Shown piece after piece: positions 3,201 to 28,672 of a stretch of DNA of 64,000 nt. The position numbers were made by a program, and so were the translations under genes. Source of the DNA: an uncultured Actinomycetota bacterium (GTDB lineage: Bacteria > Actinomycetota > Actinomycetes > UBA12327); contig CAWKKI010000004.1 in NCBI GenBank assembly GCA_963850215.1, forward strand, positions 72,682 through 136,681, written 5' to 3'. The notes under the pieces are model-generated. The model saw nothing but the letters and a program-made list of their open reading frames with translations, made no database searches and was not told the origin of the DNA. Each line of letters starts with the position of its first letter. The first letter of the stretch is position 1.

Positions 3201-4786
3201 AACTTGTCCACATTAGGCAGCTGTTGATAATTGGGTGCTGGGGACTGATTTCTCGGGCAGCCAGGGTCCCCTGTAGCGGGAATGTCCGGACCGTTCGGCG
3301 AAGTCGTCGATGGATCGGAAAAGGGTCCGGTCAGTGACTCTACGTCCAACATTGCTTGAATCGACCGGATAAATAGGCCTGAGCCGGCCATACCTAGTAC
3401 TGCCCCCGCGACCGTCGCTGCGGCCGCAAACGCGGCAGCCTCCTCAGCGGCACTGCATTGAGCCGGCGTGCCCCAGCCGCATTGCACCTCGGCAGCATCC
3501 ACCGCGTAAACCGTCGACACCGCGCCGAGCGCCAACCCCAACGGACGAGCGCCCGCGAAGTCCGCGACGGTCGCGGCCGCACCAGCGCCTACAGCGACAG
3601 TTGTGAACGTGTCTGCAGCCAAACAGTGGATGGCGAAGCACATAAGCCCGGTCGGATCACTTCCGTTAACGGGGTCGCCGCTCGAGTAGAAATAAGGGGC
3701 GCCAGTAAGTTCGGTTCGCGGGTCGGCGCTCGCAAATTGTCCGGTGGATGGGTCGTACCAGCGGGCGCGTAGGTAGATCCAACCTGTGCTCGGGTCGCTG
3801 TATTGGCCGTCCCATCCGAGAGGCAGGGGAGTCGATCCCGAGTGCGAGGACAAACTGCCGTAGGGGTCATAACTCCACGTGGCGCTGACTGTGCCGCCAA
3901 CGTTCGTGCTGTAGATGAAGGCAACTTCGCCATTGGGTTGAACAGTCGCGCCCGGGAGTGCCGCCGCGAACTTAAGTACGTTCACAGAGGCAACTCGAAG
4001 CGCCTCACTGTTCTGATAGATCGACGCTTTCAAAGATCCTGGCGACGCCCACCGGACGTAGACCCCCCGGCTTGGCGCAGTTGGGGTCCAACCGTCTGCA
4101 CGCAAGAGGTCGTGAACCCGGCGCGCATGATCGGATCCCGTGTAACGGACGAATCGATCAATCATGAAACTGACTGCCGATGCCTGGTCGCGTCGAAAGC
4201 CGCGTTCCGTCAACTCGTCGCTGAACGTCTCAACGATCTCCTCGGCAGTCTCTGCATCCACGCGATCGACGGTGCGCTCAAGTGTGCTGAGCGCAGCCTG
4301 CGCCATCACCATTTCAGAATCACCGAATCTGAAACTGGTGGGAACCAACCCGAAGACGGCGAGAAGGAGAAACACGCCCCCGACGAGTAACAGCACCGCG
4401 GCGCCTATTCCGTTGTCTGTTGCAAAGACTGCAACGACGCCTGTTCCGAGCGCGGACGCTCCGACCACAGCAGAGACAATGCGCTCCCACCAGGGCACCC
4501 GTCGATTGATCGCCGACCTCGTTGGACCATCTGGGGTTGCCACAGACCTATGGTGACGAAAGAGTTGAAACAGCGGGGCACTTTCGTCAGCAAAGCAACG
4601 AGTCCCGGCCTCGGCGTGGCAGATCAGCAGCGCCTTGTTCGACAGATCCTTGGACGGCCGGAAGGAGTCGTGGAGGCGCCACGGCTCAGTCGGAGTTAGG
4701 TAGCAGAACACACTGTTGGCATGCGAACACAGCCGAGCTAGACGGTGGTGAATTTGGAGGTAGTCGGGGTTGGAAAGGCGGGGCAT
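3197..4786 (-). CDS. chimeric protein: repeated N-terminal module + 2 TM helices + RHS core-end motif + Ala/Gly-rich hydrophobic C-terminal tip
   Basis: ORF track, 529 aa. The N-terminus PDYLQIHHRLARL..FCYLTPTEPWRLHDSFRPSK is paralogous to 146..565. The TM region is VVGASALGTGVVAVFA / AAVLLLVGGVFLLLAVFGLV. The mid-protein segment WSYDPYGSL..GWDGQYSDPSTGWIYLRARWYDPSTGQFASADP..YFYSSGDPVNGSDPTGL is the canonical RHS core terminus, but no YD-repeat shell precedes it. The gene starts 12 nt after the stop of 4799..6316. Confidence 0.7.
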   Translation of the reverse strand: MPRLSNPDYLQIHHRLARLCSHANSVFCYLTPTEPWRLHDSFRPSKDLSNKALLICHAEAGTRCFADESAPLFQLFRHHRSVATPDGPTRSAINRRVPWWERIVSAVVGASALGTGVVAVFATDNGIGAAVLLLVGGVFLLLAVFGLVPTSFRFGDSEMVMAQAALSTLERTVDRVDAETAEEIVETFSDELTERGFRRDQASAVSFMIDRFVRYTGSDHARRVHDLLRADGWTPTAPSRGVYVRWASPGSLKASIYQNSEALRVASVNVLKFAAALPGATVQPNGEVAFIYSTNVGGTVSATWSYDPYGSLSSHSGSTPLPLGWDGQYSDPSTGWIYLRARWYDPSTGQFASADPRTELTGAPYFYSSGDPVNGSDPTGLMCFAIHCLAADTFTTVAVGAGAAATVADFAGARPLGLALGAVSTVYAVDAAEVQCGWGTPAQCSAAEEAAAFAAAATVAGAVLGMAGSGLFIRSIQAMLDVESLTGPFSDPSTTSPNGPDIPATGDPGCPRNQSPAPNYQQLPNVDKL

Positions 4787-10718: not shown

Positions 10719-13700
10719 TCAGCATCCTGGGGCTCGATATACTCGAAATCGCCCAGCACCCGTTCGATGGCAACCCGGGTTGAAAACAAGACCCGAGCCA
10801 TAGAAATCAACTAAGGTCGCCAGCACGCCCACCGGCCAGTCTACCAAATGGGATCCTACCCTAAATAGCAAGTACTTTGCGAGGCGCCTCTCGCCCAGCT
10901 TTGCTAACGGGATCGTATAATTGCTGCTCTCCCCCAGGAAGTCGTAAATAGCTCGGCGAAAGTGCCTCTGGCCCAACTCAGCAAGACTAGATATCCACGA
11001 ACGATAACTGAAGAAAGAAACGATTCCATGGAGATGGGGGTGGCGTCCCCACACCCCAATGATGCGAGTTGGATTCTTCTCTCCGCCCGGCTCGCGCTCC
11101 GTATATCTGCCACTGATATCATTGTTATTGATTGGATCGTCGGGGTAGTTGTATGCGTTTTCATTTCCACCCACCTCTGGATCAAGTGAAAGAAAACGTC
11201 CCAGTATCGGGTTGTAGAGTCGATCGCCCATCAGGACGATCCCCGCTACCGCGTCGTTCGAGCGCTGCTTGTCACCGAGCCAGCCGTACGGGGACTGCTG
11301 TGTGTCGGTGCCACGAGCGAGACCGAACTCGGTTGATTCGCTGTACGAGTTCGGTCCAACGCAGGAGGGGTCCGCCGCGTTGGCACTGTTGGTGCAGTCG
11401 ATGCCCGCACCTGACGCGAAGTCGAGCGGCACGGTCGCAACGAGGTCACCGTGTGGATTGCTTAACTCGAGTTCTGCGGTGCCGGTGGAGTTGGCTTCGA
11501 TGGCCATGTCCCCGCCGAGATCATCGACGTATTGCTGCCACGTCCAGGTGGACCCCAAGTTGGTGGAGGTGGTGATGTAGGCGGGGGCATCGCCAGCGCC
11601 GTCGAAATAGTTGACGGTGCGGCGGGTCTCGGTGCCGCCGGTGGTGTAGGTGGTTTGGGTGAACCGGTCGGTTGGATCCAAGGCCATGCTCATCGCCGTG
11701 GCACTTCCGCCGGTTCCTGCCGTGATGGTGGCGGACTTGTCGTTGGCGTAGTAGGTGAACGCGGTTGCCGCTCCACCGGTCACGTCGCCGGCGGGTAGGC
11801 CGAGGGTGCGGCCGAGTGCGTCGTAGCTGATGCCGGTGCCGGTGAGCTGGTCGGCAGTGTTGTAACTGTAGGTCGCCGAGGTGGAGTCGGGCGTCGTGGA
11901 GGTCGAGCACGTACCGTCAGAGGCTGGCGGATATTCGGTGTACGCGGTGCGGTTCCCGTCGGCAGCTTGCGCGGAGCTCGATGCGCTAAAGGCGTAGGCG
12001 CGGGTGGTGCAGCCGTTGGCTCCGTCGCTGTCTTGAGTCTGTGTGAGGCGCCCGTCGTTGTCGTAGGTAAACGCTTGTGAGGACTCGGATGAGGACTGGG
12101 AGACCGTCTGTCCGAACTCGTCGCGAGTGATGCTGAAGGTCATCCACGGGGTCGTCACAGGTGGGCTGCCTGCAACAGTCAGGGCGTAGGTTTGAGACGT
12201 GACTGCGCCGTCGGGGTCGATAGTGGACGACCCGACGAGGCCGGTCGGATAGGTCTGGGACACCAGCGTGCCGTCGGCGTTGTAGCTGCCCTTGAACGTG
12301 GCGGTGCCGCCGAGCAGAGCGACCGACTCGGCCGTGACGACCCCACGGTGCTCAGCGTTACCGTTGGAGTCGGTGGCGTTGACGGTGTAGGTCGTCGCAC
12401 CATGCGCGTCGTCACGGGAGGTCAGGTTCCCGTCAATGTCGTAGCCGCTGCTGGTGGTGTTCCCCTGAGCGCTGTAAGAGGTCGTTTCACCGATCGCGTT
12501 GTAGCCAGTCGTGATCGTCCCGGTCGAGTCGGTCACCGTGGTCTGCAGGCCGGTCGAGCTGTCGTAGCCGAGCGTGCGGGTGGGCACTGCTGTGGTCGTG
12601 ATCCCTGATGTGGTGATCGAGGTAGAGACCAGCCGAGCCCCAGCGGAGTTGGCGTCGGTGTAGCCGTTGGTCGTGGTCCGGGTGGTCGACGAACCTGACG
12701 TCTCGGTCTCGGTCAGCACGTGCCCGTACAGGTCGTAGGTGTAGACCGTCGTGGGCAACGTGGAACTACCGCCACTGGACGGTGCGGCCGCCGGACCTTG
12801 CTGACACATCAGCCCGGCCCACTCAATCGCATTGGCGTTGGAGCCAGTCCCGGTCGACCCGCACTCGGGGGCAGCGGTCTCAGGGCCGACCACGTAGTAA
12901 TACGTCCGAGTGGTGCCGGCGTCGCTGCCGTTCGACGCTGGCTGGGAAGTGGCATAGGTGTCCCCGTCGTCGTAGTAGGTCGTCGAGGAGGTGATGTCGT
13001 TACTCGAGGAGGCCCCGCCGACTCCCATACGCACCGTGGTGGAGGTGGGCTGACGCAACGTCCAACCAGTCGCGGTGCCATCCGTTTGGATCGCGCCACT
13101 CGAATTCACATACACGTCGGACCCGCCGTAAGCGGTGACGGTGACCCGTTGATCGGCCGCACCTGGTGCTGCGCCGTTGGCGACGAGTGGGCTCATCGTC
13201 GCTTGTGTCAGCAGGCGGTACGGCCCACCTGAGGGTTCACTGGCGTCGTAGGAGTTGGTGGTCTGCGCCTGCGCGTCTGCCACCCCGGTCGACAGCTGCA
13301 CCTGATGCGTTGGGCCCAGAGTGGAAAGCACCTCGGACTCATCAGCACTGTAGGTCGTTGTCGAGGACAACAGGGCAGCGCGCTGTGCCGACGTGGCGAT
13401 GTCGTTGACGTAGCCATCTCCGGAGGTGGCGTTCAGTGCGTCTGCCCGGTTCTGAGCTGACAGCGACCAGACCGAGTTTCCAGCGAGGTCATAACCGGTG
13501 GAGTTGATGTTCCAACCAGTGGCGCCGCCATTGTTCGCGCTGTTCACGACGCGACCATTGGCGTCGATGTAATCGATCGAGGCGTAGGGCCATTCCGTTG
13601 ACGTCGGCTGCCACGAAGTTGACGAAGCCAGAAATAGTGACGGCGCATGCGATGCCGGAAACACCGCTGTGCCGTACAACGCGTTGTCGCTGGTCTGGTC

Positions 13701-16700
13701 CCACGACGCCGCGGTCGCGGCCGTAACATCGGGTTGGCCCGAACCGCTGAGCCCAACGCCGTACTCAACGACCTGCTCGGCTACCCCGTTGACAGGGTCG
13801 GTGCGCTTAACATCGGCGACCATCCCTGCCTGGTCCGCACCGGTTCCATCGGTCCCGGTGTAGTAGTCGATCGTCCAGGCCGCCTGACCGGGCGGGGTGA
13901 TGGTGAGCAGTCGGCCGCTTGTGGGGTCGTAGGTGTAGCTAGTGACCAATAGCGGCGTTATCCGCGGATCCCGTTCCTGCAGCAGTTGACCCGAGGTGCT
14001 GTAGGCGTAGTCGGCGATGAACGCTCCACTGGCCATCGCCCCCGTGGACGGATCCCAAGCATTCAGTTGGATCGACTTGAGACGGCCGACGAAGTCACCC
14101 GGGGTTCCCGCAGTCGCCGTGGTACTCGTCGCGTAGGTCAGGGTTAGCCCCTGGCAGCCCTGGACCAGCGGCGTTGGGTAGGCGGGACATGTGATGCCGG
14201 CGGGCGTGGGTGCGAGGATCCGGACGACCTGGCCGTTCACGTAGGTATACGACGTGCTCGCCCCGCCGGGTTGCGCGATCGAAGCGACCTCCCACTGCGA
14301 CGTGGATGCGTCCCACGTCCAAGTCGTCACGGTGCCGTCAGTGTCCGTGAGTGTGTCGCTGTATGCGTAGGCCGGTGAGGTCCCGGTCCGCGTGGCGGTG
14401 AGCACTGAGCCGTCATCGGCGTCACCAACGCCATAGAACGTGTACGGGTACGTGGTGTTGCTCGTGTCATACGTGGACACTGACCCGGTCGAGTCGGTCA
14501 ACGTGGCGTAGCCCTTAGAGGCGAAGTCGGCGAGCGTCTCATCGCCCGCACCGGCGTCCACTCCTGGGATATCCGCGACCCAGCCGGGGCCGAAGATCCC
14601 GGTCGCGCCAGATGTGTTCGTCGAGGGCGACAGCGTGGTGAAGGTGCGCCCAACGCTCATACCGAACACGCTCGCGTCGGTGGCGGACACGGCGAAGTCA
14701 CCCGTCACTTCCGACAAGGTCCCCGGACCTAGTTGCGTTGTGGCGGCGGACGCGGAGAAGGTGTGGGTGGCCATCGTCACGTCGGTGGGCGTCGAACAAT
14801 TGGTGAAGGGGCCCGCCGATGTGGTCGCGAAGCAGGCCTCGATCTGCAGTGGTCCGTCCACCGGGTTACCTTTACCCAGCAGCGTCTGCAGCGTGCTCAG
14901 GGCGTTCCATGTCAGTTGCCCGTAGACCCCGCCGGAGGCTGCGTACGGCCACGAACTCAGACCCGTTCCGCCGGGGACCTTCACATCCCCGACCGGGACC
15001 AACGACCACGGGTTACTCGAGGAGCTTTCGACGCCCCGGACGTAGTTGTATTCGACATAGTTGTTTCCAGAGGCCGCCTTGGTGTTCAGCGTCACATCGA
15101 GCTGCGTCGTAGCCGCCTCGGCCGGCGTCACAATCCCACCGGGCCCCGTGCCGAAAGTGAAGGTGCCAGTCGTTTCGTTGCTGGCCCGGTCCAGTGCCTG
15201 CACCGTCAATGTGTGCAAGCCCGCCGGCAAATTGGATAGCACTGACACACTCGTCGCGCTCGAGGTAATCGGCTGCTGACCGTCAATCCAGTACGTGTAC
15301 TTGGTGACATCGCTCGACGTGTCAGACCAGTTGATCGAGCCCGTGGCGCCCTTGCCGACCCAGCCGCCCGACGTGAACGTGGACGAGCTGAAGGTGGGAA
15401 TGGCGGGGGCGGTGTTGTCGGCGTAGAAGTCTTGCCACGCCGTCAAACCCGAGCCCATATAGACCCCGCCCGAGTAGTCCTCAGATTTGACCTGCCACTG
15501 ATAGTGATCGCCATTGATCAATGGACCGGGCACTTGGTAGGCCGATGGACCGCCCGACGCCGCAGTGGTCCCGACCGAGCCGCTCGAGGAACTCACCCAC
15601 GTGGTGGTGCCACCTGTGACGTCCTTGACGTAAAAGCGCCCGTATGCCGATCCACCGTCTTGGTCGGCCACGACCGCCGACAGATCAGGGGCCGACGCCG
15701 TGTAGGTGCCGGTCGCTGGTGACAGCCCTGTCGGCAGCGTCGGGTAATGGTTGTAAGTGATGTAGATCGCCGGAGCTCCCGATCCGATGTCGTCGGAGTA
15801 GAACTGCCGATACCCATATACGTCGGTCTCTTCGGTGTACATCTCCAGCTGGTGCGCGGTGTAGGTGGCATTCGCCCAGTCCTGCGCGGCCGGGGTGATG
15901 GTGATGTTCTGATACGCCTCCCCCGGACACGACGGCCCGTTGTGCACAAACTGCGCCGATCCCACCGTGGTGCCTGCACTGGGGACGTTGGACCAGTCGG
16001 TTGAGGAGTTCCAGGTGGTCGAGGGGATCGACACATTGATCGTCGCTGCGGTCGCCGAGCACGTGGACGAGTAGGAGTTGTAGACCTGCAAATAGGCGGA
16101 GTCGATATAGGTGCCCACGATCGTCGAGGGCACCGGGAACGTGAAGAACGACCGGTACTTCGCCGCAGACCCGTCCTTACCGGTGTACAGGTAGTCCGCC
16201 GAGTCATACGTCGTCGATGGAGTCGCCGAGTCGACATACGTGTCAGCCGTGTCGTGGAAGTTCGTGGACGGGTCAACCGTCACCGGATACGTGACTGAGC
16301 CCGAGAGCAGCGATTCTGCTGGCGATATCAACTGCACCGCCGACGTCATCGCGGTACCGGGCGCAACAACAGACAGGCCAGGGAAAGCGGCAGCCAACGA
16401 GGAGACTGACGGGAGCGAGCCAGGTACGGCAGGCCCTGCCGTGCCCACAGAGATTGAGGCTGACGGGCTCGGCGCGGCCGAAGAACTGGTTGCCGTGCTG
16501 ACACTTGGCGAACTGCTCGGGCTCGGCGATGCCGACGGAGTCGCTGAACTCACCGGGGTCGCTGCCACTGGGATGGACGAGGACGCACTGACGGTGCTTA
16601 CCGAGCCAGTCGCTAACCCTTGAGCCACCGCACCAGCAACAAGCGGATCCCCCGCCGCCGCACCGTCCGCACCGAACACCGCACCGGGTGACCCCGACGC

Positions 16701-17420
16701 CACGACATCGCCACTTGTGTTGGTGAAAGCCAGAGTGGAATCCGAATTGGACGACACACTCAACCCGGAGGTGTGAATCGGCAGCGCGAACACCGGCACG
16801 GTCGAGGGGCGGGCCTTGATCACCCACGACAACTCATACCCGGTGTCGCCCGCGATCACCTGCAAATCGATGTTCGGGGCCACGTTCGCGTACGTGGCGA
16901 TATTGCCGTCAACCGTCGGGACCGGCAACGAACCAGGCCAAGACACCGTGACACTCTTGCCGTCCTGCGACAGCCGGATCAGATCCCCTGTGCCCCCGTC
17001 GGACAACGACAATGCTGCGGTCGTCGCACCGGTATGAAGGCGACCATCCGAACTGTCACTTAAAGATTTGTCGACCTTGGCCCACGACCCATCGTTCGCG
17101 TGCACCCAGATCGGACCTGCTGAGGCTTGTAACGACAACGAACCGTCCGCATTCGCAAACGTCGACGACGTCGTTGTTCGATCGGCGACGATTTCAACCG
17201 GCGCGTTCTGACTCCGCGCCGCAATCATCGCCGACACCTCATCCGGCTCAGTCGTGACCTTCACCGCAGGTTTCGCCGCGGCAGACGCGGACTGTGCACC
17301 CGCCAACGAGACGGCAGGCACGATGGCCACGAGCACTGCCATGGACGTGATCGAGGCTGCGATCGACACGCGACGTGACGAGGATCGCGCAGAACCGAAC
17401 CGGCGACATGCAGAAGACAT
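10719..17420 (-). CDS. RHS/YD-repeat polymorphic toxin, intact (2233 aa)
   Basis: ORF track. The N-terminus is signal-peptide-like (SITSMAVLVAIVPAVSLAGAQSASA). There are many YD-type repeats (YTYDPTSGRLLTI, YTYDLYGHVLTETE, YNADGTLVSQTYPTG, FTYDNDGRLTQTQD). The core end is LMGDRLYNPILGRFLSLDPEVGGNENAYNYPDDPINNNDISGR, followed by a 127-aa C-terminal tip (10722..11102) that I do not recognise. Confidence 0.9.
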   Translation of the reverse strand: MSSACRRFGSARSSSRRVSIAASITSMAVLVAIVPAVSLAGAQSASAAAKPAVKVTTEPDEVSAMIAARSQNAPVEIVADRTTTSSTFANADGSLSLQASAGPIWVHANDGSWAKVDKSLSDSSDGRLHTGATTAALSLSDGGTGDLIRLSQDGKSVTVSWPGSLPVPTVDGNIATYANVAPNIDLQVIAGDTGYELSWVIKARPSTVPVFALPIHTSGLSVSSNSDSTLAFTNTSGDVVASGSPGAVFGADGAAAGDPLVAGAVAQGLATGSVSTVSASSSIPVAATPVSSATPSASPSPSSSPSVSTATSSSAAPSPSASISVGTAGPAVPGSLPSVSSLAAAFPGLSVVAPGTAMTSAVQLISPAESLLSGSVTYPVTVDPSTNFHDTADTYVDSATPSTTYDSADYLYTGKDGSAAKYRSFFTFPVPSTIVGTYIDSAYLQVYNSYSSTCSATAATINVSIPSTTWNSSTDWSNVPSAGTTVGSAQFVHNGPSCPGEAYQNITITPAAQDWANATYTAHQLEMYTEETDVYGYRQFYSDDIGSGAPAIYITYNHYPTLPTGLSPATGTYTASAPDLSAVVADQDGGSAYGRFYVKDVTGGTTTWVSSSSGSVGTTAASGGPSAYQVPGPLINGDHYQWQVKSEDYSGGVYMGSGLTAWQDFYADNTAPAIPTFSSSTFTSGGWVGKGATGSINWSDTSSDVTKYTYWIDGQQPITSSATSVSVLSNLPAGLHTLTVQALDRASNETTGTFTFGTGPGGIVTPAEAATTQLDVTLNTKAASGNNYVEYNYVRGVESSSSNPWSLVPVGDVKVPGGTGLSSWPYAASGGVYGQLTWNALSTLQTLLGKGNPVDGPLQIEACFATTSAGPFTNCSTPTDVTMATHTFSASAATTQLGPGTLSEVTGDFAVSATDASVFGMSVGRTFTTLSPSTNTSGATGIFGPGWVADIPGVDAGAGDETLADFASKGYATLTDSTGSVSTYDTSNTTYPYTFYGVGDADDGSVLTATRTGTSPAYAYSDTLTDTDGTVTTWTWDASTSQWEVASIAQPGGASTSYTYVNGQVVRILAPTPAGITCPAYPTPLVQGCQGLTLTYATSTTATAGTPGDFVGRLKSIQLNAWDPSTGAMASGAFIADYAYSTSGQLLQERDPRITPLLVTSYTYDPTSGRLLTITPPGQAAWTIDYYTGTDGTGADQAGMVADVKRTDPVNGVAEQVVEYGVGLSGSGQPDVTAATAASWDQTSDNALYGTAVFPASHAPSLFLASSTSWQPTSTEWPYASIDYIDANGRVVNSANNGGATGWNINSTGYDLAGNSVWSLSAQNRADALNATSGDGYVNDIATSAQRAALLSSTTTYSADESEVLSTLGPTHQVQLSTGVADAQAQTTNSYDASEPSGGPYRLLTQATMSPLVANGAAPGAADQRVTVTAYGGSDVYVNSSGAIQTDGTATGWTLRQPTSTTVRMGVGGASSSNDITSSTTYYDDGDTYATSQPASNGSDAGTTRTYYYVVGPETAAPECGSTGTGSNANAIEWAGLMCQQGPAAAPSSGGSSTLPTTVYTYDLYGHVLTETETSGSSTTRTTTNGYTDANSAGARLVSTSITTSGITTTAVPTRTLGYDSSTGLQTTVTDSTGTITTGYNAIGETTSYSAQGNTTSSGYDIDGNLTSRDDAHGATTYTVNATDSNGNAEHRGVVTAESVALLGGTATFKGSYNADGTLVSQTYPTGLVGSSTIDPDGAVTSQTYALTVAGSPPVTTPWMTFSITRDEFGQTVSQSSSESSQAFTYDNDGRLTQTQDSDGANGCTTRAYAFSASSSAQAADGNRTAYTEYPPASDGTCSTSTTPDSTSATYSYNTADQLTGTGISYDALGRTLGLPAGDVTGGAATAFTYYANDKSATITAGTGGSATAMSMALDPTDRFTQTTYTTGGTETRRTVNYFDGAGDAPAYITTSTNLGSTWTWQQYVDDLGGDMAIEANSTGTAELELSNPHGDLVATVPLDFASGAGIDCTNSANAADPSCVGPNSYSESTEFGLARGTDTQQSPYGWLGDKQRSNDAVAGIVLMGDRLYNPILGRFLSLDPEVGGNENAYNYPDDPINNNDISGRYTEREPGGEKNPTRIIGVWGRHPHLHGIVSFFSYRSWISSLAELGQRHFRRAIYDFLGESSNYTIPLAKLGERRLAKYLLFRVGSHLVDWPVGVLATLVDFYGSGLVFNPGCHRTGAGRFRVYRAPGC

Positions 17421-18678: not shown

Positions 18679-21600
18679 GGCTCCCACACCCGTGCCGGCA
18701 CAGATTTGAATGTATATACCTGAAGTGGGTACGCGCCGTCTGGGGTCAGCCTGGCACACTCCTCGAAACAAACCTCAATGTCCGCATATGACGAAGTGAC
18801 CGTCATAAATGACCAATTGAATGCGTCGGAATGGATTTCGACTGAATCGCCAGGCCTCAATTCATAACTGAATTTCCTCGAGAATGAGCCGCTGTACACC
18901 TTGCCAGAGACGTCGCCCCAGCTTAATCCATTAGCCACCAAGAGCCAAAGAATTGACCCGAAATTGGCGACAAACTTGTACCGCCGTTGCCCGCATATAG
19001 ATGACACGTTTCGTGGCTGCACGACCCACCGACGCGGACGCGTACCCAGAGTGTTGTTAGAACCCAATGGCCGCCGGAACCGCCACCGTTCGGCGGTTCG
19101 GTCGTCTCGCCTGACAGGTCCGATCCCGTAACGGGATTCTGGTTGACGTAGTCGTAGGCGTTTGCGCTGCCTTCGAATATCGGGTCAGGCGAGTCGAAGC
19201 GCCCGATGTTGGAGTTGTAGGCGCGCCGCCCCATGAGGATGGTTCCGCCGAGGGCGGCACCGGATCGCTGGTTTCCCCCAGGTAACCGTAGGCACCCGGC
19301 GCCGAAGAGGTTGGTTCGGGAGTGCCGAATTCCGTGTAGGTGTATGTGGCGGTCGGAGCGGTGTCGCTCGACGGGTTGACGGTGGCCACAACGTCACCAC
19401 GCAGGTCGGTCAACTGGAGGCTCACCGCGCCCGATTGGGTCACTTGGGCACCCAGGGTGCCATCAAGACCCGTGACGTCGGCGGTCCAGACGCTGTTTGT
19501 TGTCGTCCAGCTTGGTGAATCCCCAGGATCAGAATAGTCCGTGACGGTCGTGTAGCCGGTTGTTGAGTTTGTTTGACTGGTGTACCGAGACAAACTGCCG
19601 TCGAGGCTGTAAGTGTCGGTGGTGGATCCTTGGGTTTGGGTGTTCAGCATGCCATTGCCGTAGTAACTGGCGCTCAACGCTCCGGCCCCCCAGCATCCGC
19701 CGCGGGCGTCACGGTGACGTCGCCCTGAGTGTCGTAGGTGTAGGGACTGGTCGTGCCAGCAATGGTGCTCGAGGCCAGCCTGTCTGCCGAGTCGTAGTTG
19801 TAGCTTTCGTTCGAGGCGCTGGTGGTGTTTGGCACCCGCCCCCTGTTGCAGCGTTATAGACGGTAAGTGTCGTGCGGTTGGAGTCGGAGTCGTATCCGTA
19901 GGCTCGTGTTGTGCACGAAGTGGCGTAGGTGTCTTGCACGCTGGTCAGGCGATCAGCGACGTCATAGGTGTAAGTCTTGGAGTCGTTCGGCGTGCTTTCG
20001 TTGGTCCAGTCGCCTTGCGCGTTGGCGGATACGGCGTCGCTGATGGAACTTGCCCATTTGAGTTGGAGTACGTCAACTGGGTTGGCGTGCCCGTTGCATC
20101 GATCGTGTATGTGGCAACTGTGCCGTCTGGGTACGTTTGATTCTGAATCTCGGTATCGGGGTCGTAGGTCGCGGTGAATGTGCCGGCCAATTGGTCGACT
20201 TCCTTAACCGGCTGTCCACCGGGTGAATACGTCATGGTGTCGACATCGTGGGGCGTCGTGCGCGTCGCGACCTGACCGTTGAGGTTGTAGGTGTAGCTAG
20301 TCGCCTGGTTGTTGGCGTCCGTGTATGTGACCCCTTGGCCGAAGTCGTCGTATGCGGTTTTGATGTCACTCGTCACGGTGCCAGAAGAGTTAAGCGTTTC
20401 GGCGTCGGTCGGCAATCCGCTGTTGCCGCTGTAGACCGCCGCAGTCCTCGGCGGCGCGGCACCCATTCCAGTTCCCATCATCGTCACCGTCTGTCCCGTG
20501 GGCCGATTCAGCGAGTCGTAGCCCGAGCTGATGGTTTCGGTACCCGTAGTGCCGTACGTCTTGGTCTGAGTCAGCACGGTCAAGTAGTCGCTATAGGTGA
20601 AGGTCACGGTAGGAATGGCGCTGGTGTCGGCGGGCTGCGCGGCCGGAGAGACTTGGCATTTCAGATTCGCCCACTCGGGTTTGTTTCCGCAGGAGGCGAC
20701 CTGGCTGTTGGTGGAGGCCGTGTAGTAGACGATGTGGGTGTCTCCGGCTGTTCCACCGGTGGGATCTGAGGGTTGGTCCTGGTCGATGACGAGGTTGTCG
20801 CCGTTGTAGAGCGACGAGTTCTCGTTGTAGGCGACAGTCGAGGCCAGGTTCAAACCATTGGGATCCGTAATGGTTTGCAGTGGCGTGCCCAGGGTCCAGC
20901 CGGTGTTGTCCGAACCTGCCGTGTAGACGTACTTCGTGGTTCGAGTATCCGCGGTGGAAGATCCTGGAATCGACGAGCCAACGCTTGCCGAAGTGGTTGT
21001 GCTCGTCGGAAGCATGTAGGGATTCCCGTTAACGTTCGTGTCGCTGTTGGGCGCTCCGGCATCGTACGTGATCGCGGTATGGGTGCGACCCCCTTCAACC
21101 ACCCCGTCAACGTTGATGGTGTGCGTTGGTGAGTAGCTGTCGGTCTCGACTTGGTAGGACTGATCCGCGCTCGTGCAGGCGCCGATGGTGCCGTAGTTGT
21201 CGCAGGCGAAGAGGTTGATGGTGCTCAGCGACAGTGCGGTGGCGGCCGGGGAGCCCGAGTTTAGTGCGGTGGCACGGTCAGCGGCCAACAGCGTCGAAGT
21301 GACATTGCCGTATGCGTCGTACTGGGTTGTGGTCACGGCCCATGCTCCATTTACATACGCGGCGGTATTGACCTGATGACCTGACGCGTCGAAGTAGTCG
21401 ACGGTGGCGTACTGATAGTCGGTCTGGGTAGGCGACGCTGTCGAGCTTGGTACGTATCCACCGGGCCAAACCGCGACCGCAGAGGTTGGCGTATCGGTCT
21501 GGTTCCAGGTCGCGGCTGTGGTTCCGTCCATGTTCACCGGGCCACCAGCCGACGACGGTGAGGGGGACGGCGTAGTCGATGGTGTTTGTCGCGGTCGTTC

Positions 21601-24600
21601 CGCCGTAGGTCGATGAGTGAGTTCGCGACACGGAGACGAGTTTTCCGTAGTTCACGTCGGTTGCGGTGTCGTCGTAGGTGAAAGTCCACGCGGCGAAGGC
21701 GCCGGATGAGCTGGCCTGGGCTGGGGAGTAGGCGGTGATGCGCCCGTAGTCGGCGTCAGTGCTCGTCTCATCGTAGGTGTACCCGGAAGCCAGGGGGGTG
21801 GACAGTCGCGGGTCCCACTCGCTGGTCAGTCGACCGCTGGAGTCGAAGGTGTATTTCGCGACGACGACGTCGTGGTAGGTGGCCGAGTTGTCGACGTACA
21901 CGAAGTCGATTTGCGACACCGCTGTGGCGGCGTTGTACGTAAATGACAGACCACGGCAGCCGGCCGTCCAGGTGGTGGAGGACGGCGGGTTCGGGCAGAT
22001 AGTGGTAGACGCGCTCGTCGAGGTGGGATCGGGCGCGTCTACCAGCAACGGGTGCCCCGCCGTGTTGTAGACAATCCCTGTCGAGCTTGAGGTCCCGGGT
22101 GACGTGATCGTGGCTGGCAAATAGTTGCCCGCACCGGATGAATAATTGAACGCGGTGATGTTGTTCGAGGCGTCGACCAGGCTGAAGGTGTTGGTGGTCG
22201 TGTTCTTGGTCAAGGACAGGCCGGCAGTCACCGCATTGGCGTCCGCCGTGTAGGAGACGGTGGATCCGCTAGTCGAGGCTTGCGTGAAGGTGTACGTAGA
22301 CCCATCCGCGGCGGTCAATACCGCATACGAGCTGTCGTCCGTTACAGAGGTATAGCTCGTCGCTTGGGTGGATCCGATCCCCGACACCCAGCCGGGTCCG
22401 AAGATTCCTGTTGCCGAAGGATTGACCGAGTTGAACGTGCGCGACACCAGTAGGTCGGCGCCGTAGGACGGTATGTCGACGTCGGCCGTTGAAAGGGCCG
22501 CGTTGCCCGATTGCAATCCGACGGTAACGGGTCCCGAGCTTGTAGTGCCGAAGTCGACGCCCGACCCGGTGCGTGACAGGGTCACCGACACCGGTGGGGT
22601 GGTGAGCGTGGGGCCTGTCGAGTTGGAGAAGACGGCTTCCACTTGAACCAAGCCGTCATTGGCGATGGTGCGATTCACGTACCAGGTCAGTGTGCCGGTT
22701 TGCACTCCGGCCGCGTTTGTAGTCGTGGCGGTGGGCCAGGTCACGTTGCAGCCACATGAGTCAACCGTCACGTGGTTCGGGATCGTCGTGAAGCTGCCCG
22801 TCGTGCCGAGTCGGTACTGAAAAGTTGCACCAGTGTAGGAACCGGGAACAGCTGCTTGCAGGCTGACCGACGCGGCGGTCTGGCTTCCGTCTGATGGCGC
22901 GAGCATGGCGCCGCTGGTCCCCACGCCGAATACATACGTCTTCGATGCTCCGTTGACGTTGGCGTCGTCAACAGCGGTGACGGTGAGCGTGTACAGGCCA
23001 TTGCTTGTGGGATTGAGGTTGAAGGTGCCGCTCGAACCGGTGACCCAGGACCACACCGGACTGCCGGATCCGTTCTGCAATTCGGTCGTGTAGCCCTCAA
23101 CCAGCGTCGTGGTGTCAGAGAATGAACAGGTTGTCCCGCCCGAGATGAGGGCGGTCCAAGCACCAGCCGGGTAGCCGCTACACGTGACGGTGGGAGCAAC
23201 AGGTGCTGTCGCATCGGTGGTGAACGACTGTGCCGATGTCCACGGCCCATACACCGTTCCGTCATACGGCCGAATGTAAAGCTGATACGTCGTGTTGTTG
23301 CTGAGCGCAGTAGTTGTGGCCAGCGAGCCTGTCGCGCCCGAGGCGAAATAACCGCTCGTGACATCCTCGATGACCGTTGAGCCCTGCTGGACCTTGAATT
23401 CGTACTCCAGCGGGTTGCTCAGCGGGTCGTACGCGTGGGCCTGCAGCGTCGGGGTCAGCGACGAGGTGTACAGGCCGCCATTCGCAGCCCAGTTCTGCGG
23501 ACTTAGCCCCAGGCTGTCCGCCCCGTACGGTGCTTGGTCGTAAGTGATGGACAGAGTTGGGGAAGGACCGAACTCAACAAACTGGTTGCCGTTGGTCTCA
23601 CTCGAGTTGATGAGACCCAGGGTGAACTGCCAACCGTTGGCCTGCAGGTCGGTTTGCACCCAGGACGCGACGTTGATCGGGACCGCCAGATTCGGGCTGG
23701 TCGAAGCGGTGGTGAAGTTCACCGCCGTTGGGCCGGCGATCGAAGTCGGCGGACTGCTCCAGCTAGTAGTTGACGTCGCCTGACTCGTGTAGCTGGCATT
23801 GATGGTGTGATTGATCGAACTATTGGTGAATGTCGTAACGGCGGTTGCCGTGACTGTTGCTGACAGGACTTGCGTCGTCGGGCCCTGCGCAGCGGTCGGT
23901 AGCCCAAAGACGTAGTAGCCGCGGTCGATCCCGCCCCCGTCATAGCCCACGGACACATTCCCGTTGTACGTGGCGTTCAGCTCCTCGGCGGTCGGATACG
24001 CAGACTGGGTCTCGTCATAGGCCGTCCACGACTGCGCCACTGTGTAGGAGGGGTCGATGATCACCGGGAACGTCGTTGACGGCGAGTTCAGCAGAGCCGT
24101 TGGCGCTTGCATGGTTGCCGTGGTTCCCGAGTAGGTCACGGCCACGGCCACCGGCTTGGGGTTGGCTGATGAATCCCACGCCCGAGGCGCGGGAGAGGTG
24201 AACACAATCTGACCGTCGGCATTCTTGACCGTGACGTTGCCCGACGCATCGGCGCTTTGGCTCAATCCCTTACTCAGGGCCGAGCTCAGCACCAACCGCG
24301 CCAACCCTGGATTGCTGGCCGCCTGAGGCGTTTCGACAACGAGGCTGTCTTCGAATCCGCCCGACGTGTCGGCCGTGACGACGAGGTTGACGCCGGGGAG
24401 AACATTCGCGTAGTTGGCCGATGGCCCGGACACCGTGGGGACCGGCAGTACGGTCGGCCACGACACGGTCCATGAGCCCTTTGGTGTCGTGACGTTAGCC
24501 AGCGAAGTGTTGTTGCCGGCCGACAACCTCAGGCCGTCCTCGGCCGCCGCGGGCGAAAAGGTCCCGTCCGAAATTGGCAACGAGATCGGCATCGGCTGCG

Positions 24601-24929
24601 ACCCACGAACCGTTTCGCTGTACCCATCGCGGTGTCGGCGTGGACGTGTAGGTCCGCGTGCCATCGCTATTAACGCTCACCTGAGAATAGGCCGTCTGAT
24701 CGGCATCGATGTCTACTGCTTTGCCGCATTCCTTGGCCAACATCGTCGCCGTCACGGCGTCCACCGCGGCGCTGGCAGCACACGCGGCGGCCTTCGCGCT
24801 GCTTGTCGCCGTTGCCTGCGTCGCGGCTTGGGCCGTCCCCACGCCGCCTGCGACGAGCGCCAGACACAGCCCGCCGATGAGCCAAATGCGGCGGTTTGCA
24901 GCTCCGATGGGACCGCGACGCAGATTCAT
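18672..24929 (-). pseudogene. second RHS/YD-repeat gene, broken by about five single-nt frameshifts
   Basis: Collinear fragments in different frames: 24929..~24590 (signal peptide MNLRRGPIGAANRRIWLIGGLCLALVAGGVGTAQA), 21278..24664, 19945..21537, 19057..19677, 18923..19234 (core end YNSNIGRFDSPDPIFEGSANAYDYVNQNPVTGSDLSGE) and 18672..19067 (low-GC tip). The fragments are paralogous to RHS1 (for example SWPTVLPVPTVSGPSANYANV versus SWPGSLPVPTVDGNIATYANV). Confidence 0.8.
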
Positions 24930-25148
24930 GAATTCCCCTTGGGTTTCGAATCGCACCTCGTGCGAACAACTCCCGCACGCAGCGAACCCAATCGGTGAAA
25001 CACGGGTCATGTCAAGCAAATACACACTATTTGTGACTTGCGTGTACATCGTGACATTCTGTTTGGATCGTCTGGGCGAACCGCGGGCCCAGTTCCGACG
25101 CATCCGTTCGGTTCTAGGCCCGCGGCGCTGGGCTGACCAGGGGACGGG

Positions 25149-25280
25149 TCAGCAGCAGTTCGGCCAATCCAAGGGGTGAACCTTGGGCACGGTCATCGCA
25201 CTGGCACCGGAGGTGGCCACCCCGCTCAAGCTTCCGGCCAGCAACAGGGTGATCAGAATCGCCAGAACCCGGGATTTCAT
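25149..25280 (-). CDS. unannotated small secreted-peptide ORF (43 aa): MKSRVLAILITLLLAGSLSGVATSGASAMTVPKVHPLDWPNCC
   Basis: Found by hand because it is below the ORF-track size cutoff. ATG 25280 has GGAGGAG 8 nt upstream. It has a classic signal peptide with an ASA cleavage-type motif, leaving a ~15-aa C-terminal peptide ending in CC. It is co-directional with and 220 nt upstream of the RHS2 start, and divergent from the HTH-TPR regulator. Confidence 0.5.
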   Translation of the reverse strand: MKSRVLAILITLLLAGSLSGVATSGASAMTVPKVHPLDWPNCC

Positions 25281-25423
25281 GACTCGCTCCTCCACTCGAC
25301 AACACGGATGATGTGATGTCTAGTGGATCGACTACACAAAGTGTGTGTCTTGGAGTTGAACAACACACGTGTCGGGCTCTCACAGGTACGGTGCCGGAAC
25401 GGCCGACCTGGAGAGGAACGGGC

Positions 25424-26755
25424 ATGGGTTCAGAATTCGGGCGTCGGCTGCGGGCACTCCGCACCGAACAAGGCCTCCAACAGTCGGACTTGGCTGGTCC
25501 GGGTATATCGATTTCCTACGTGTCTATGCTGGAAAACGGCAACCGCGAGCCAACCGAACGGGTCGTGCAACACCTGGCCCAGGTCCTTAAGGTCCAGCCC
25601 CATGAGCTGACCGGACCCGTCCCCGCCGAACGGCTCGACCACGCACAGCGTCTTCAGATCGCGTCTGCCGAGTTCGCGTTGGGCAATGGCGAGGCTCACA
25701 AAGCGGCTAGCGAGTTCGCCTCGCTGGAGCCCACCCTGGGGTTGCCGGCCACGTGGGGGTTGGCTCGGGCCCTTGAAGGAATGGGCGATCTCGAGTTAGC
25801 TCTCAAGACACTCGAGCGTGTGGTGCATCTGGCTACCGAGGCGGGCGACTATCCCCTCTTGATACGAGCACACATCGCGCAGAGCCGGTGCATGGGCGAA
25901 ACTGGTGAGCACTCCGACGCCCTTAAAGCAGCCCTGAGGGCAACGAACACCGCCCACGAGCATGGATTACAGGGCACCGACGAACACGCCCAGGCAATGT
26001 CCACCCTGATCGCTCGCTACTACTGGCTAGGCGACATGACAAACGCGGAAGCGGCCGCGCATGAACTGCTCAAACTCGTCGACGCCGGCTCGTCGTGGAA
26101 GGCGCGCGGCTCGGCCTATTGGAATGCAGCCGGGGTCGCCGAGGCCAGTGGGGATCTCCCTCGAGCAGTTCAGTACGCACAACGCGCCGTGGCGCTGCTC
26201 AGTGAGGGCGACGACGAACGCATGTCGGGCCGCTGCGCCGTGGCGTGCGCATGGTTCTGGATGCGACAAGTCGACGCGACCGATCACCTCACCGAGATCC
26301 AAGCAATGCTTGAGCAAGCCAAACGCAAGTTGTCCCTGAGCGGTACTGAGACCGATCACGCTTACCTCGAAACGGAGCAGGCCCGCGCGGCGCTGCTCGG
26401 TGGAAATCCAGCAGAAGCAATCGAATTCTGCAACAGAGCACTGGATCGGCTCGAAACCAAACCCCGCGCCGAAACTGCTACCACCCTGCTCGTACTAGCG
26501 CAGTCACAGGTCGAAGTCGGCGAACAGGCAGACGCCCTAGCAACAGCGGATCGCCTGGAGATGACGCTGCATAGCCTTCAACACAACCGCAGTGCCGCCA
26601 ACAGTTGGCGAGGTCTCGCGGACCTGTACAAGAGGCTCGGTGCCGACGACGCCGCCTACCGTTCCCTCGAATACGCGCTCAATGCCCACGCCATATCGGT
26701 CAGTCCGACGCCGCAGGAGCGCAAGGCCGAGAGCTTGGCGCAGCCGGACAACTAG
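25424..26755 (+). CDS. XRE-HTH + TPR-like repeat transcriptional regulator (443 aa)
   Basis: ORF track 25313..26755, trimmed to ATG 25424, which has GGAGAGG upstream. The HTH is FGRRLRALRTEQGLQQSDLAGPGISISYVSMLENGNREPTERVVQHLAQVL. The remaining ~370 aa are Ala/Leu-rich helical repeats typical of TPR-like sensors. Confidence 0.8.
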   Translation: MGSEFGRRLRALRTEQGLQQSDLAGPGISISYVSMLENGNREPTERVVQHLAQVLKVQPHELTGPVPAERLDHAQRLQIASAEFALGNGEAHKAASEFASLEPTLGLPATWGLARALEGMGDLELALKTLERVVHLATEAGDYPLLIRAHIAQSRCMGETGEHSDALKAALRATNTAHEHGLQGTDEHAQAMSTLIARYYWLGDMTNAEAAAHELLKLVDAGSSWKARGSAYWNAAGVAEASGDLPRAVQYAQRAVALLSEGDDERMSGRCAVACAWFWMRQVDATDHLTEIQAMLEQAKRKLSLSGTETDHAYLETEQARAALLGGNPAEAIEFCNRALDRLETKPRAETATTLLVLAQSQVEVGEQADALATADRLEMTLHSLQHNRSAANSWRGLADLYKRLGADDAAYRSLEYALNAHAISVSPTPQERKAESLAQPDN

Positions 26756-27137
26756 ATCGCGCACGAGGGCGAGCGAAGTTGAATGGCGACATGGCCGAGC
26801 ACGCAATGCGCCTCGCCCTAGCCGCCTCCACCTGGAGAGATTTGCTGATCTATGGGTTGGCTTCGGGCACTAAAGTGCGCTCAGACCCACACCACCTTCG
26901 CAGCCACCACTGAATGGCTGTCCGAGTTCCGACAGGTGGGTACCGCCGAGCAAGCCGCGCCCTCGCGGCGAGCAATCCGAGCCCACTCATCCGTTGACTC
27001 AAGCCCGAAGGCACTTCACACTTCTAGTGTTGCGTCGTGAGAGCGCTTCCTCACGACATGAAGAACGGTCGCGCTGCTCCTTGGGACGCGCACCGCCAAG
27101 AACTCAGTCCCTCGTGGACACTCCAACTGGGGGACAC

Positions 27138-28672
27138 ATGTCTGATCCGTACGGGCCACCGCCTGCTCCGCAGCCACAACCACCCGCGCTGCCAGTCGTG
27201 CGCCCGATACCTACCGGCACGCCTCTGAAGACTGATACCAATATTCAAGGCAATGTTCTTGCAGCCTTCAACAAGGACTGGCAGACATTCCTCCTTCTTC
27301 AGTGGCCCAACGCTGATCAGGCGCGAGCCTGGCTGACCGCCCTGCTTCCACGCTTGTCGAACAACGCCTCGGTGGCTGCCTTCAACGCGGACTTCAGCGC
27401 AAAAAGACACGCCGGAGGCGGAGATCCCGAGGATCTCGCGGCGCTCTGGGTGAACGTTTCCATCACTGGAGCCGCTCTGGCCATGCTCGCACCCGACGCA
27501 TCCACGGCACTCAACGCATTGCCAGTAGACCCGGGAGTGAATCACTTCACGGCGGGCGCGCCGAACGACGCCGCGGCGGTCGGCGATGTGGGCCCAGCGA
27601 TCCCATGAACTGGCTGTTCGGCAAAGACCCGAACAGCATTCATGCCATCGTCACCATCGCCGCTGATCGGGAGAGCGATCTAGCGGTAGAGATTGCGCAC
27701 CAACGGGAACTAGCGGCCCAGAATGGCCTCGCTGTCATCTTCGAACAAGATGGCGCCACACTCCCCCACGAGTCGGCCGGGCACGAACACTTCGGCTTCA
27801 AAGATGGCATCTCGCAACCGGGCGTCATCGGCTTCGACGATGCCGACCCCGACAACCCAAGTCAGGTCAACGGAAAGCCGGGCACGGAACTTCTGCCCAC
27901 AGGTCTGTTTGTGCTCGGCTACCCGGCGACCACTGACGGCGCGGTGAGCGTGGCCGTACCGAAGTGGATGTGGGACGGCAGCTTTCTTGTTCTCCGCCGG
28001 CTCGCCCAAGACGTCCCAGGCTTCTGGGAGGGCGTTGAGACCGCCAACTCAACCCTTCAACCCGCCGACCGAAGCGATGCAACCGGGATTCCGAACGCGG
28101 ACACGTTGGCCGCGCGCTTGGTCGGTCGCTGGCGCAGCGGGACGCCCACCGATGACTCACCAACAGCCGATCACCTCCTGCCGTCGGGCCCAGGTCTCAA
28201 CGATTTCGACTTCACGAGCGATCTGGACGGGCAGAAGACGCCTCACGCCGCGCACATCCGCAAGGTCTACCCGCGGAAGGGAAACAGCGGCCTGAATGAG
28301 CTTCAGACACAAGCGCGGCGGATCCTGCGCCGTGGCATTCCATTCGGCGAGCCATTCGATCCGTCATCTGGGCGGGGGGAGGGCATCGACGCCGAACGTG
28401 GATTGATCTTCCAGTGCTACCAGGCCAGCATCTTCCAGCAGTTTCTCTTCCTCCAGCAAGCGTGGATCAACAACGCAGCCTTTCCGGAACCGGGTGCAGG
28501 AAACGACGCCCTGATCGGCAACGCGTCACAGGTAACGGTCAACCCAAACGGGGTTGCGCGCTCGCTCAGTCTGGCCGATTTCGTCACCACGCAAGGTGCC
28601 GTGTACGCCCTGACACCCTCGCTTTCGACTCTCGCGCTGCTCGCGTCCAGCGGTGCCCTGCCCGTGACGTAA
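27138..28672 (+). pseudogene. DyP-type peroxidase split into two ORFs (27138..27608 and 27605..28672)
   Basis: The C-terminal ORF carries the DyP hallmark HEHFGFKDGISQPGV. The N-terminal ORF has NIQGNVLAAFNKDWQTFLLLQ, typical of DyP N-termini. The junction ..GDVGPAIP* / MNWLFGKDP would read ..GDVGPSDPMNWLFG.. if one C were added to the CCC run at 27593-27595. The stop and start overlap as ATGA. Confidence 0.75.

Follow-up and report, generated by a model that had tools for sequence, protein, structure and literature searches.

A conserved Cys-Cys pro-peptide gene paired with a helix-turn-helix/tetratricopeptide-repeat regulator in Actinomycetota: a candidate peptide-signalling cassette beside an RHS gene

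We describe here a two-gene locus in a 64,000-nucleotide (nt) stretch of DNA from an uncultured Actinomycetota bacterium (contig CAWKKI010000004.1 of assembly GCA_963850215.1, positions 72,682 to 136,681; hereafter the window). The locus consists of a 43-codon open reading frame (ORF) for a small, putatively secreted pro-peptide and, divergent from it, the gene of a regulator that joins an XRE-type helix-turn-helix (HTH) to tetratricopeptide repeats (TPR). The pair is conserved in about 100 actinobacterial loci, through rearrangements, and on comparative grounds the small ORF is a real, conserved gene. The best explanation, which we hold to be rather probable, is a two-gene peptide-signalling cassette that would work like the RRNPP systems of Firmicutes. 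In addition, a neighbouring putative RHS toxin gene likely shares an operator with the peptide/regulator region, as judged from palindromes found in both places.

Results

The pro-peptide gene and its divergent regulator

A preliminary description of the window had proposed a 43-residue ORF at 25280-25149 with a strong GGAGGAG Shine-Dalgarno sequence and signal-peptide features, an ASA site leaving a 15-residue tail, and, on the opposite strand 143 nt away, a 443-residue protein with an XRE HTH and TPR-like repeats. Coordinates, Shine-Dalgarno sequence, leader features and regulator architecture all hold, and the translation agrees with the proposed tail. The features are as follows.

25149-25280, minus strand: pro-peptide gene, 43 codons, predicted Sec-type leader and 15-amino-acid (aa) tail MTVPKVHPLDWPNCC; translation MKSRVLAILITLLLAGSLSGVATSGASAMTVPKVHPLDWPNCC, then stop
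25149-25196, minus strand: last 15 codons and stop of the pro-peptide gene
25287-25293, minus strand: putative Shine-Dalgarno sequence GGAGGAG of the peptide gene, 6 nt before the ATG (sequence reading)
25081-25125, minus strand: G+C-rich hairpin (inverted repeat I1, 18-nt arms), 24 nt past the peptide stop; likely terminator
25424-26755, plus strand: regulator, 443 aa, starting 143 nt from the peptide gene and divergent from it
25433-25609, plus strand: XRE-type HTH of the regulator (HTH_3/HTH_31; residues 4-62; Pfam, E ~1e-10)
25640-26689, plus strand: TPR superhelix of 17 helices (residues 73-422; AlphaFold2 model)

The 43-codon ORF starts with ATG. Its predicted leader has an n-region with K2 and R4, a hydrophobic core of 12 residues and an A-S-A site; from these features and their conservation a Sec signal peptide is predicted, and a cut at A-S-A (after ASA28) would release the 15-aa tail. 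The product has no match in Pfam or NCBIfam. When the peptide was looked up exactly in the gene catalogue, carriers appeared only in the lineage of one locus, L009 (L-numbers designate loci of regulator homologues, whose contexts were obtained by exact protein look-up), and a paralogue search of the window's genome (2.47 Mb) returned a single regulator and a single peptide ending in Cys-Cys (CC).

Downstream of the peptide stop, the hairpin folds as RNA with -43 kcal/mol (z = -3.46), none of 200 shuffles folds equally well, and its stems are kept in L009. A simple terminator scan of 24850-25500 found nothing; such a scan misses this hairpin because it has no U-tail. So strong a structure after the stop argues that the peptide gene is probably monocistronic and that the RHS gene further downstream would probably have an operator-bearing promoter of its own.

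The regulator has neither a signal peptide nor a membrane segment. In addition to the HTH, Pfam detected TPR_12 (E=6e-17), and TPR_MalT below its cut-off. The AlphaFold2 model, built from a 37-sequence alignment (mean predicted local distance difference test score 90.1), shows the HTH followed by 17 helices, and a Foldseek search of the PDB with this model was led by consensus-TPR designs, LGN/Pins and MalT domain III. In a PDB profile search the chains of PlcR and Rgg (5w4m/5w4n) matched residues 1-78 only, and the HTH also matched SinR and the 434 repressor. Membership of the RRNPP family by homology was rejected, as only generic TPR superhelices and HTH-level matches were obtained; since the TPR domain has no detectable RRNPP homology, we keep the analogy and treat the regulator as an analogue, not as a member.

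The motif AYWNA (residues 231-235) is 98-99% conserved throughout the family. R228, R266, R270, R389 and C156 are more conserved in loci linked to a peptide gene than in the rest, a contrast that is confounded by phylogeny, so that this Arg/Cys set is only a lead towards a possible binding site for an anionic C-terminus. A CxxxC pair of the regulator (C271, C275) was considered as a partner of the peptide cysteines and set aside: it is not family-wide, and only C156 is conserved (74%).

Conservation of the peptide gene beside regulator homologues

For the comparison, 160 further loci were taken from metagenomes and GTDB genomes and then scanned for Cys-Cys ORFs. The regulator homologues grade from 81% down to ~30% identity, and from 81% to ~31% the small ORF stays beside them, its leader varying and its C-terminal Cys-Cys constant. 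Counting loci with full flanks only, a leader-peptide ORF with a terminal Cys-Cys lies within 900 nt of the regulator in 103 of 128. Across the fetched loci these ORFs are divergent (71), convergent (44) or co-directional (9) with respect to the regulator. A divergent ORF ending in Cys-Cys within 600 nt was present in 62 of 149 homologous loci, as compared with 6 of 149 on the other strand of the same stretch; a further control gave 3/132, and at baseline 0.76% of all ORF segments in the homologue loci end in CC. Most of the remaining loci (Nocardioidaceae, Streptomyces and others) carry the peptide gene downstream and convergent, usually ending in WCC. All named relatives belong to the Actinomycetota: Jiangella, Phytoactinopolyspora, Nocardioides, Streptomyces, Frankiaceae and metagenome-assembled genomes of Nanopelagicales.

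Close to the window, L009, whose regulator is 81% identical, has an already-called 43-aa gene that differs from the window's peptide by one residue, and in L010 and L012 (regulators ~64%) peptides at the same position end in ...SSPKVHPMSWPQCC and ...TPRTDSWPLCC. More generally, the orthologues in L010, L012, L014, L015, L036 and L051 end in (D/S/N)WPxCC, and an ATG with a Shine-Dalgarno-like purine run is present in 8/8 members of the window's clade. The Phytoactinopolyspora orthologues differ at codon positions 1/2/3 in 85/45/197 places. Leaders diverge freely, yet their charge, hydrophobic core and AxA-type sites are kept. Tails carry clade-specific motifs, WPxCC in the window's clade and WPGMCC, PG(D/E)FCC, GP(L/I)GCC, AGPPxCC or xWCC elsewhere, and both the position of the peptide gene and its tail motif track the clades on the regulator tree. 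The search for conserved small ORFs beside regulator homologues, which the preliminary description had put forward as a check, thus found them, and that adjacency survives changes of orientation points to a functional partnership rather than to hitch-hiking in an operon.

Two variants of the arrangement were also seen. In two Jiangella genomes one regulator is flanked by two Cys-Cys peptide genes, at 3760-3882 and 5435-5599 in L143 (Jiangella muralis) and at 3766-3888 and 5439-5603 in L147 (J. endophytica). The residue before CC is equal within each genome and differs between the two (..GSYCC/..SDYCC in one, ..GDFCC/..SDFCC in the other), a pattern that hints at co-variation of the peptide with its receptor. 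Peptides of a separate class run on past ..AGPGGCC or ..GPGPCC for another 2-15 C-terminal residues; carriers are L022, L048, L070, L111, L119 (Actinoplanes sp. KI2), L096 and L100 (Streptomyces), and where the gene lies upstream it is 430-500 nt from the regulator.

A tract nearly identical to L009 covers the peptide gene and its promoter region.

25131-25446 (L009 5708-6023): 315-nt tract, ~98% identical to L009, covering peptide gene and intergenic region as well as 22 nt at the regulator start

The surroundings are 75-84% identical across 7.3 kb, and coding constraint alone cannot explain the tract because the 132-nt ORF holds only 2 differences. It could reflect recent recombination of the peptide cassette or constraint at the nucleotide level. 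The pairs L010/L012 and L014/L015 have no such tract; we dropped nucleotide-level constraint as an interpretation, as the other pairs do not show it and recombination is as likely.

Candidate operators at the locus and before the RHS gene

Palindromes of the form CACA-N5-TGTG, which we term operator-like, lie between the two genes and ahead of the adjacent RHS gene.

25303-25315: operator-like site O1, CACG-GATGA-TGTG (one mismatch), inside the imperfect palindrome 25291-25327 (inverted repeat I5)
25335-25347: operator-like site O2, CACA-AAGTG-TGTG, 32 bp from O1, between peptide gene and regulator
25023-25035: operator-like site O3, CACA-CTATT-TGTG, 94 nt upstream of the RHS ATG
25015-25010, minus strand: TTGACA hexamer; O3 lies 7 nt upstream of it
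19945-24929, continuing below 19945, minus strand: RHS2, gene of a putative giant secreted RHS/YD-repeat protein with a predicted N-terminal signal peptide; likely regulated target

The O1 equivalent in L010 and L012 is a perfect palindrome with 12-bp arms, CTATACAACACA-N5-TGTGTTGTATAG, and O1 and O2 are spaced by 32 bp there as in the window. In an alignment of six intergenic regions of the clade the CACA and TGTG columns are invariant, and the palindrome occurs in the intergenic regions of L010, L012, L014, L015 and L017. L009 has two exact sites at the same places, its RHS-side intergenic region being otherwise 75% identical. The 2.47-Mb genome contains 17 copies of CACA-N5-TGTG, two of which (O2 and O3) fall within 312 bp at the locus; with at most one mismatch the window contains 19 sites, five of them inside 370 bp at the locus. 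A third site directly after the regulator was found in L010, where a DyP peroxidase gene follows it, and in L012, where it precedes an Lsr2 gene. No CACA-N5-TGTG site precedes the second RHS gene of the window (RHS1, 10719-17420).

The RHS2 ATG, at 24929, lies 219 nt downstream of the peptide gene on the same strand, bearing out the placement in the preliminary description. The gene is 84% identical at the nucleotide level to an L009 gene of more than 2070 aa, and its fragments gave weak YD-repeat matches only (TIGR01643, E=3.8e-5; PF05593, E=7.7e-4, below cut-off). RHS_repeat, TEN_YD-shell or DUF6531 domains were detected in neighbours of the regulator in L010, L012, L019, L036 and L051. Giants of the RHS/DUF6531/CBM96 kind stand beside the regulator in seven distinct loci (window/L009, L010, L012, L019, L036, L051), all of the window's clade, in three different arrangements; none was found in ~150 other loci. 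In L019 and L051 the RHS genes are 80% identical, their regulators only 40%.

The second sub-clade, L036 and L051, repeats the same logic with another motif: the intergenic region between peptide and regulator holds two exact copies of GAGTTAAC, and the sole other copy in each locus lies directly before the RHS gene. We consider this recurrence the best evidence for control of the toxin gene by the regulator. A near-match palindrome stands 5 nt before a TTGACA ahead of the RHS gene of L019. The preliminary description had raised the possible control of a toxin, and that suggestion gains support from the palindrome common to both regions of the window and from the GAGTTAAC repeat.

Other genes recur nearby. 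L036 (5321-5890, minus strand) and L051 (3023-3547, minus strand) have a further XRE-like gene, smaller than that of the HTH-TPR regulator and placed between the latter and the RHS gene; it is divergent from the RHS gene, and the shared promoter region contains the motif GTTAACTC. DyP-type peroxidase genes stand beside regulators of the family in the window (26994-28672), L010 (7400-9031), L090/L091 (972-2315) and L065 (2-1126), and this recurrence may be linked to thiol chemistry of the peptide.

Discussion

A candidate signalling cycle

In the cycle that we propose, the 43-aa pre-peptide would be exported by Sec and cut by signal peptidase after ASA28, giving a peptide of at most ~15 aa with the conserved C-terminus ...(D/N/S)-W-P-x-C-C. 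The peptide would accumulate outside the cell, be re-imported by an Opp-type permease and bind the TPR superhelix of the cytoplasmic XRE-HTH regulator, and binding would alter occupancy of the CACA-N5-TGTG palindromes by the regulator. The two palindromes in the divergent promoter region could then mediate auto-regulation of peptide gene and regulator, and the one just upstream of the putative -35 hexamer of the RHS gene could make toxin expression follow the peptide signal. One gene for an SBP_bac_5 (Opp/Dpp-type) binding protein is present in the genome, which is 76% complete. Export with cleavage, return of the peptide into the cell, its binding to the receptor, the direction in which regulation runs and the role of the two cysteines are our inferences. 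Since the terminal Cys-Cys is invariant, the free C-terminus together with the thiols may be what is recognised, or the signal may be modulated by a redox or metal state; free-thiol/disulfide state and metal binding are both candidates for a part of the message. A bolder version, an independently evolved actinobacterial class of Cys-Cys pheromones whose thiol/disulfide or metal state is part of the message and which gates an RHS toxin in a freshwater lineage, is a tentative proposal that we think doubtful as it stands. If it were true, population density, and perhaps also the redox state, would govern antagonism between cells.

Several observations weigh against the cassette reading or its RHS branch. 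No RRNPP structure was among the top 50 PDB matches of the regulator model in Foldseek, nothing AimR-like was found in the viral structure library BFVD, and no RRNPP-specific Pfam or NCBIfam family was matched at E<0.1; the case for peptide binding is made from architecture and synteny only, since neither sequence nor specific fold links the TPR domain detectably to RRNPP receptors. Counted along the entire window, the palindrome does not exceed its frequency in shuffles, so its weight comes from clustering and conservation across loci, and a simple sigma-70 promoter scan of 24850-25500 found no consensus promoter. In L010 and L012 the RHS genes are 1.5-2.5 kb distant, and no operator was found in front of them. 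RHS2 itself occupies at least three frames; compared with the intact gene of L009 it shows five single-nt indels (19689, 19826, 20052, 21553 and 24568), several of which lie outside homopolymer runs, and a neighbouring DyP gene is also split. These frameshifts may reflect gene decay or assembly error, and the presumed target may accordingly be decaying or lie in error-prone assembly. Finally, a sub-clade with close regulators (L017, L018 and L094) has no nearby peptide gene. Upstream of the regulator these three loci carry a conserved hairpin, CCTACCTGACCCCCGTGCAGGTAGG (L017 ~3840-3870, L018 ~2165-2195, L094 ~3835-3865), followed by the block GTGTCACAGAC(A/G)TGACA(T/G)AT(G/C)TTGTCATG.

Other explanations of the small gene

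The peptide might instead be a secreted thiol effector acting by metal or redox chemistry, or a small antimicrobial, with an HTH-TPR protein that merely regulates and senses something else. Its sole invariant feature is indeed the chemically reactive and metal-binding Cys-Cys, DyP-type peroxidase genes recur beside the regulator (window, L010, L090/L091, L065) and hint at extracellular redox chemistry, and no RRNPP homology was found for the regulator. However, the residues before CC diversify fast among close relatives, for example PGDFCC, PGEFCC, PGQYCC and PVDMCC in Jiangella, which fits specific signals better than some general chemical function; the adjacency of the pair is kept through inversions, and the surroundings hold no conserved genes for export, immunity or modification. 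We rate this explanation as unlikely. Quite unlikely, in our view, is that the small protein is never released and acts as a membrane-anchored mini-protein or on the outer face, controlling the regulator indirectly through sequestration or another sensor. Cleavage is a prediction, the c-region of the window's peptide is long (12 residues) with several alternative small-residue sites, and L012 has a proline right after its best AxA-like site. Throughout the family, however, AxA-type sites lie 7-20 residues from the C-terminus, conservation is concentrated in the extracytoplasmic tail, and the regulator has no membrane segment.

A short ORF with conserved C-terminal cysteines also resembles the precursor of a ribosomally synthesized and post-translationally modified peptide, the Cys-Cys being turned by enzymes into a natural product. 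We give this very little credence, as the ORF has a predicted Sec signal peptide instead of the leader of such precursors, genes for tailoring enzymes (radical-SAM, LanD-type, cyclodehydratase or other) are not conserved alongside, and the neighbours vary by clade (RHS, DyP, ribonucleotide reductase, dehydrogenases, aminotransferase). A chance, untranslated open frame in a promoter region, which might be suspected of 43 codons that are unannotated in most records and match nothing in Pfam or NCBIfam, is effectively refuted by the comparative data: about 100 loci keep the frame, the Shine-Dalgarno sequence, the leader features and the CC-stop, and substitutions are biased to third codon positions.

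Comparison with known systems

The closest parallels to the proposed signalling cassette are NprR-NprX and PlcR-PapR of the Bacillus cereus group. There as here, a cytoplasmic regulator has an N-terminal XRE-type HTH and C-terminal TPR, an adjacent small gene encodes a Sec-exported pro-peptide with its active part at the C-terminus (export and active part being predicted here), and a palindromic box stands in the regulator's own promoter region and before genes of secreted toxins or virulence factors. NprR is also similar in size to the window's regulator, with ~9 TPRs. The present system differs in belonging to Actinomycetota rather than Bacillota, in having no detectable homology outside the HTH, in its divergent peptide gene (papR and nprX lie downstream), in the invariant C-terminal Cys-Cys and in its likely target, a putative RHS polymorphic toxin. 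We know of no RRNPP peptide with an invariant C-terminal Cys-Cys.

Rgg-SHP and ComR-XIP of streptococci likewise pair an HTH and TPR-like receptor with a very small peptide gene, and combine auto-regulation through a shared intergenic region with control of an adjacent target, as we propose here. The SHPs, in contrast, have no Sec signal, are exported by PptAB, and are hydrophobic and without Cys-Cys, and their receptor resembles the window's regulator only at the level of the HTH (5w4m/5w4n). The preliminary description had seen a departure from the classical layout in the divergent peptide gene; this hardly stands, since SHP groups I and III have a divergently transcribed peptide gene, the Rgg/SHP and PrgX/PrgQ layouts are divergent, and in the present family it may be divergent, convergent or co-directional. 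The RRNPP-like switch suggested at the same time fares differently in its parts: the architecture and the adjacent, conserved pro-peptide gene speak for it, whereas homology of the sensor domain does not, only the HTH matching PlcR and Rgg.

Within the same phylum, the gamma-butyrolactone/ArpA system of Streptomyces also serves cell-cell signalling with a receptor-repressor on palindromic operators, which are candidates in our case; its signal is a small molecule made by AfsA and its receptor is of the TetR type, whereas our candidate signal is gene-encoded, with an HTH-TPR protein as its presumed receptor. As for structure, the best matches of the sensor domain are MalT domain III (1hz4, template modelling score 0.55-0.64) and LGN-Pins (LGN ~0.5-0.67). 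The inner groove of LGN accommodates extended peptides; LGN is a eukaryotic scaffold, MalT is a STAND-ATPase regulator, and neither has a directly fused HTH or a partner peptide gene.

Significance

That such pairs are not well described in this phylum, as first noted from the sequence, agrees with the literature searched: no paper on an actinobacterial HTH-TPR/peptide (RRNPP-like) system was found, and the peptide/HTH-TPR family is apparently unpublished. Small-molecule signals are what the RRNPP_detector paper and a 2026 quorum-sensing review ascribe to Actinomycetota. Textbooks and reviews up to 2026 have the phylum signal through small molecules such as gamma-butyrolactones, the reviews naming no other kind, and regard gene-encoded peptide pheromones with cytoplasmic TPR receptors as a Firmicute speciality. 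The logic seen here would be that of RRNPP systems, transferred to another phylum, marked by another peptide signature and lacking demonstrable homology, and the locus would add a shared candidate operator and an RHS output.

The family, with its distinct Cys-Cys signature, occurs in cultured Jiangella, Phytoactinopolyspora, Nocardioides and Streptomyces as well as in freshwater lineages. It may bear on an old question, namely which extracellular peptide signals are imported by oligopeptide permeases during Streptomyces development. The RHS gene that appears to share the operator provides a concrete, testable output. If the proposed cassette is real, this widespread actinobacterial counterpart of the Firmicute systems would make a new set of "communication codes" readable in the phylum from which most antibiotics come.

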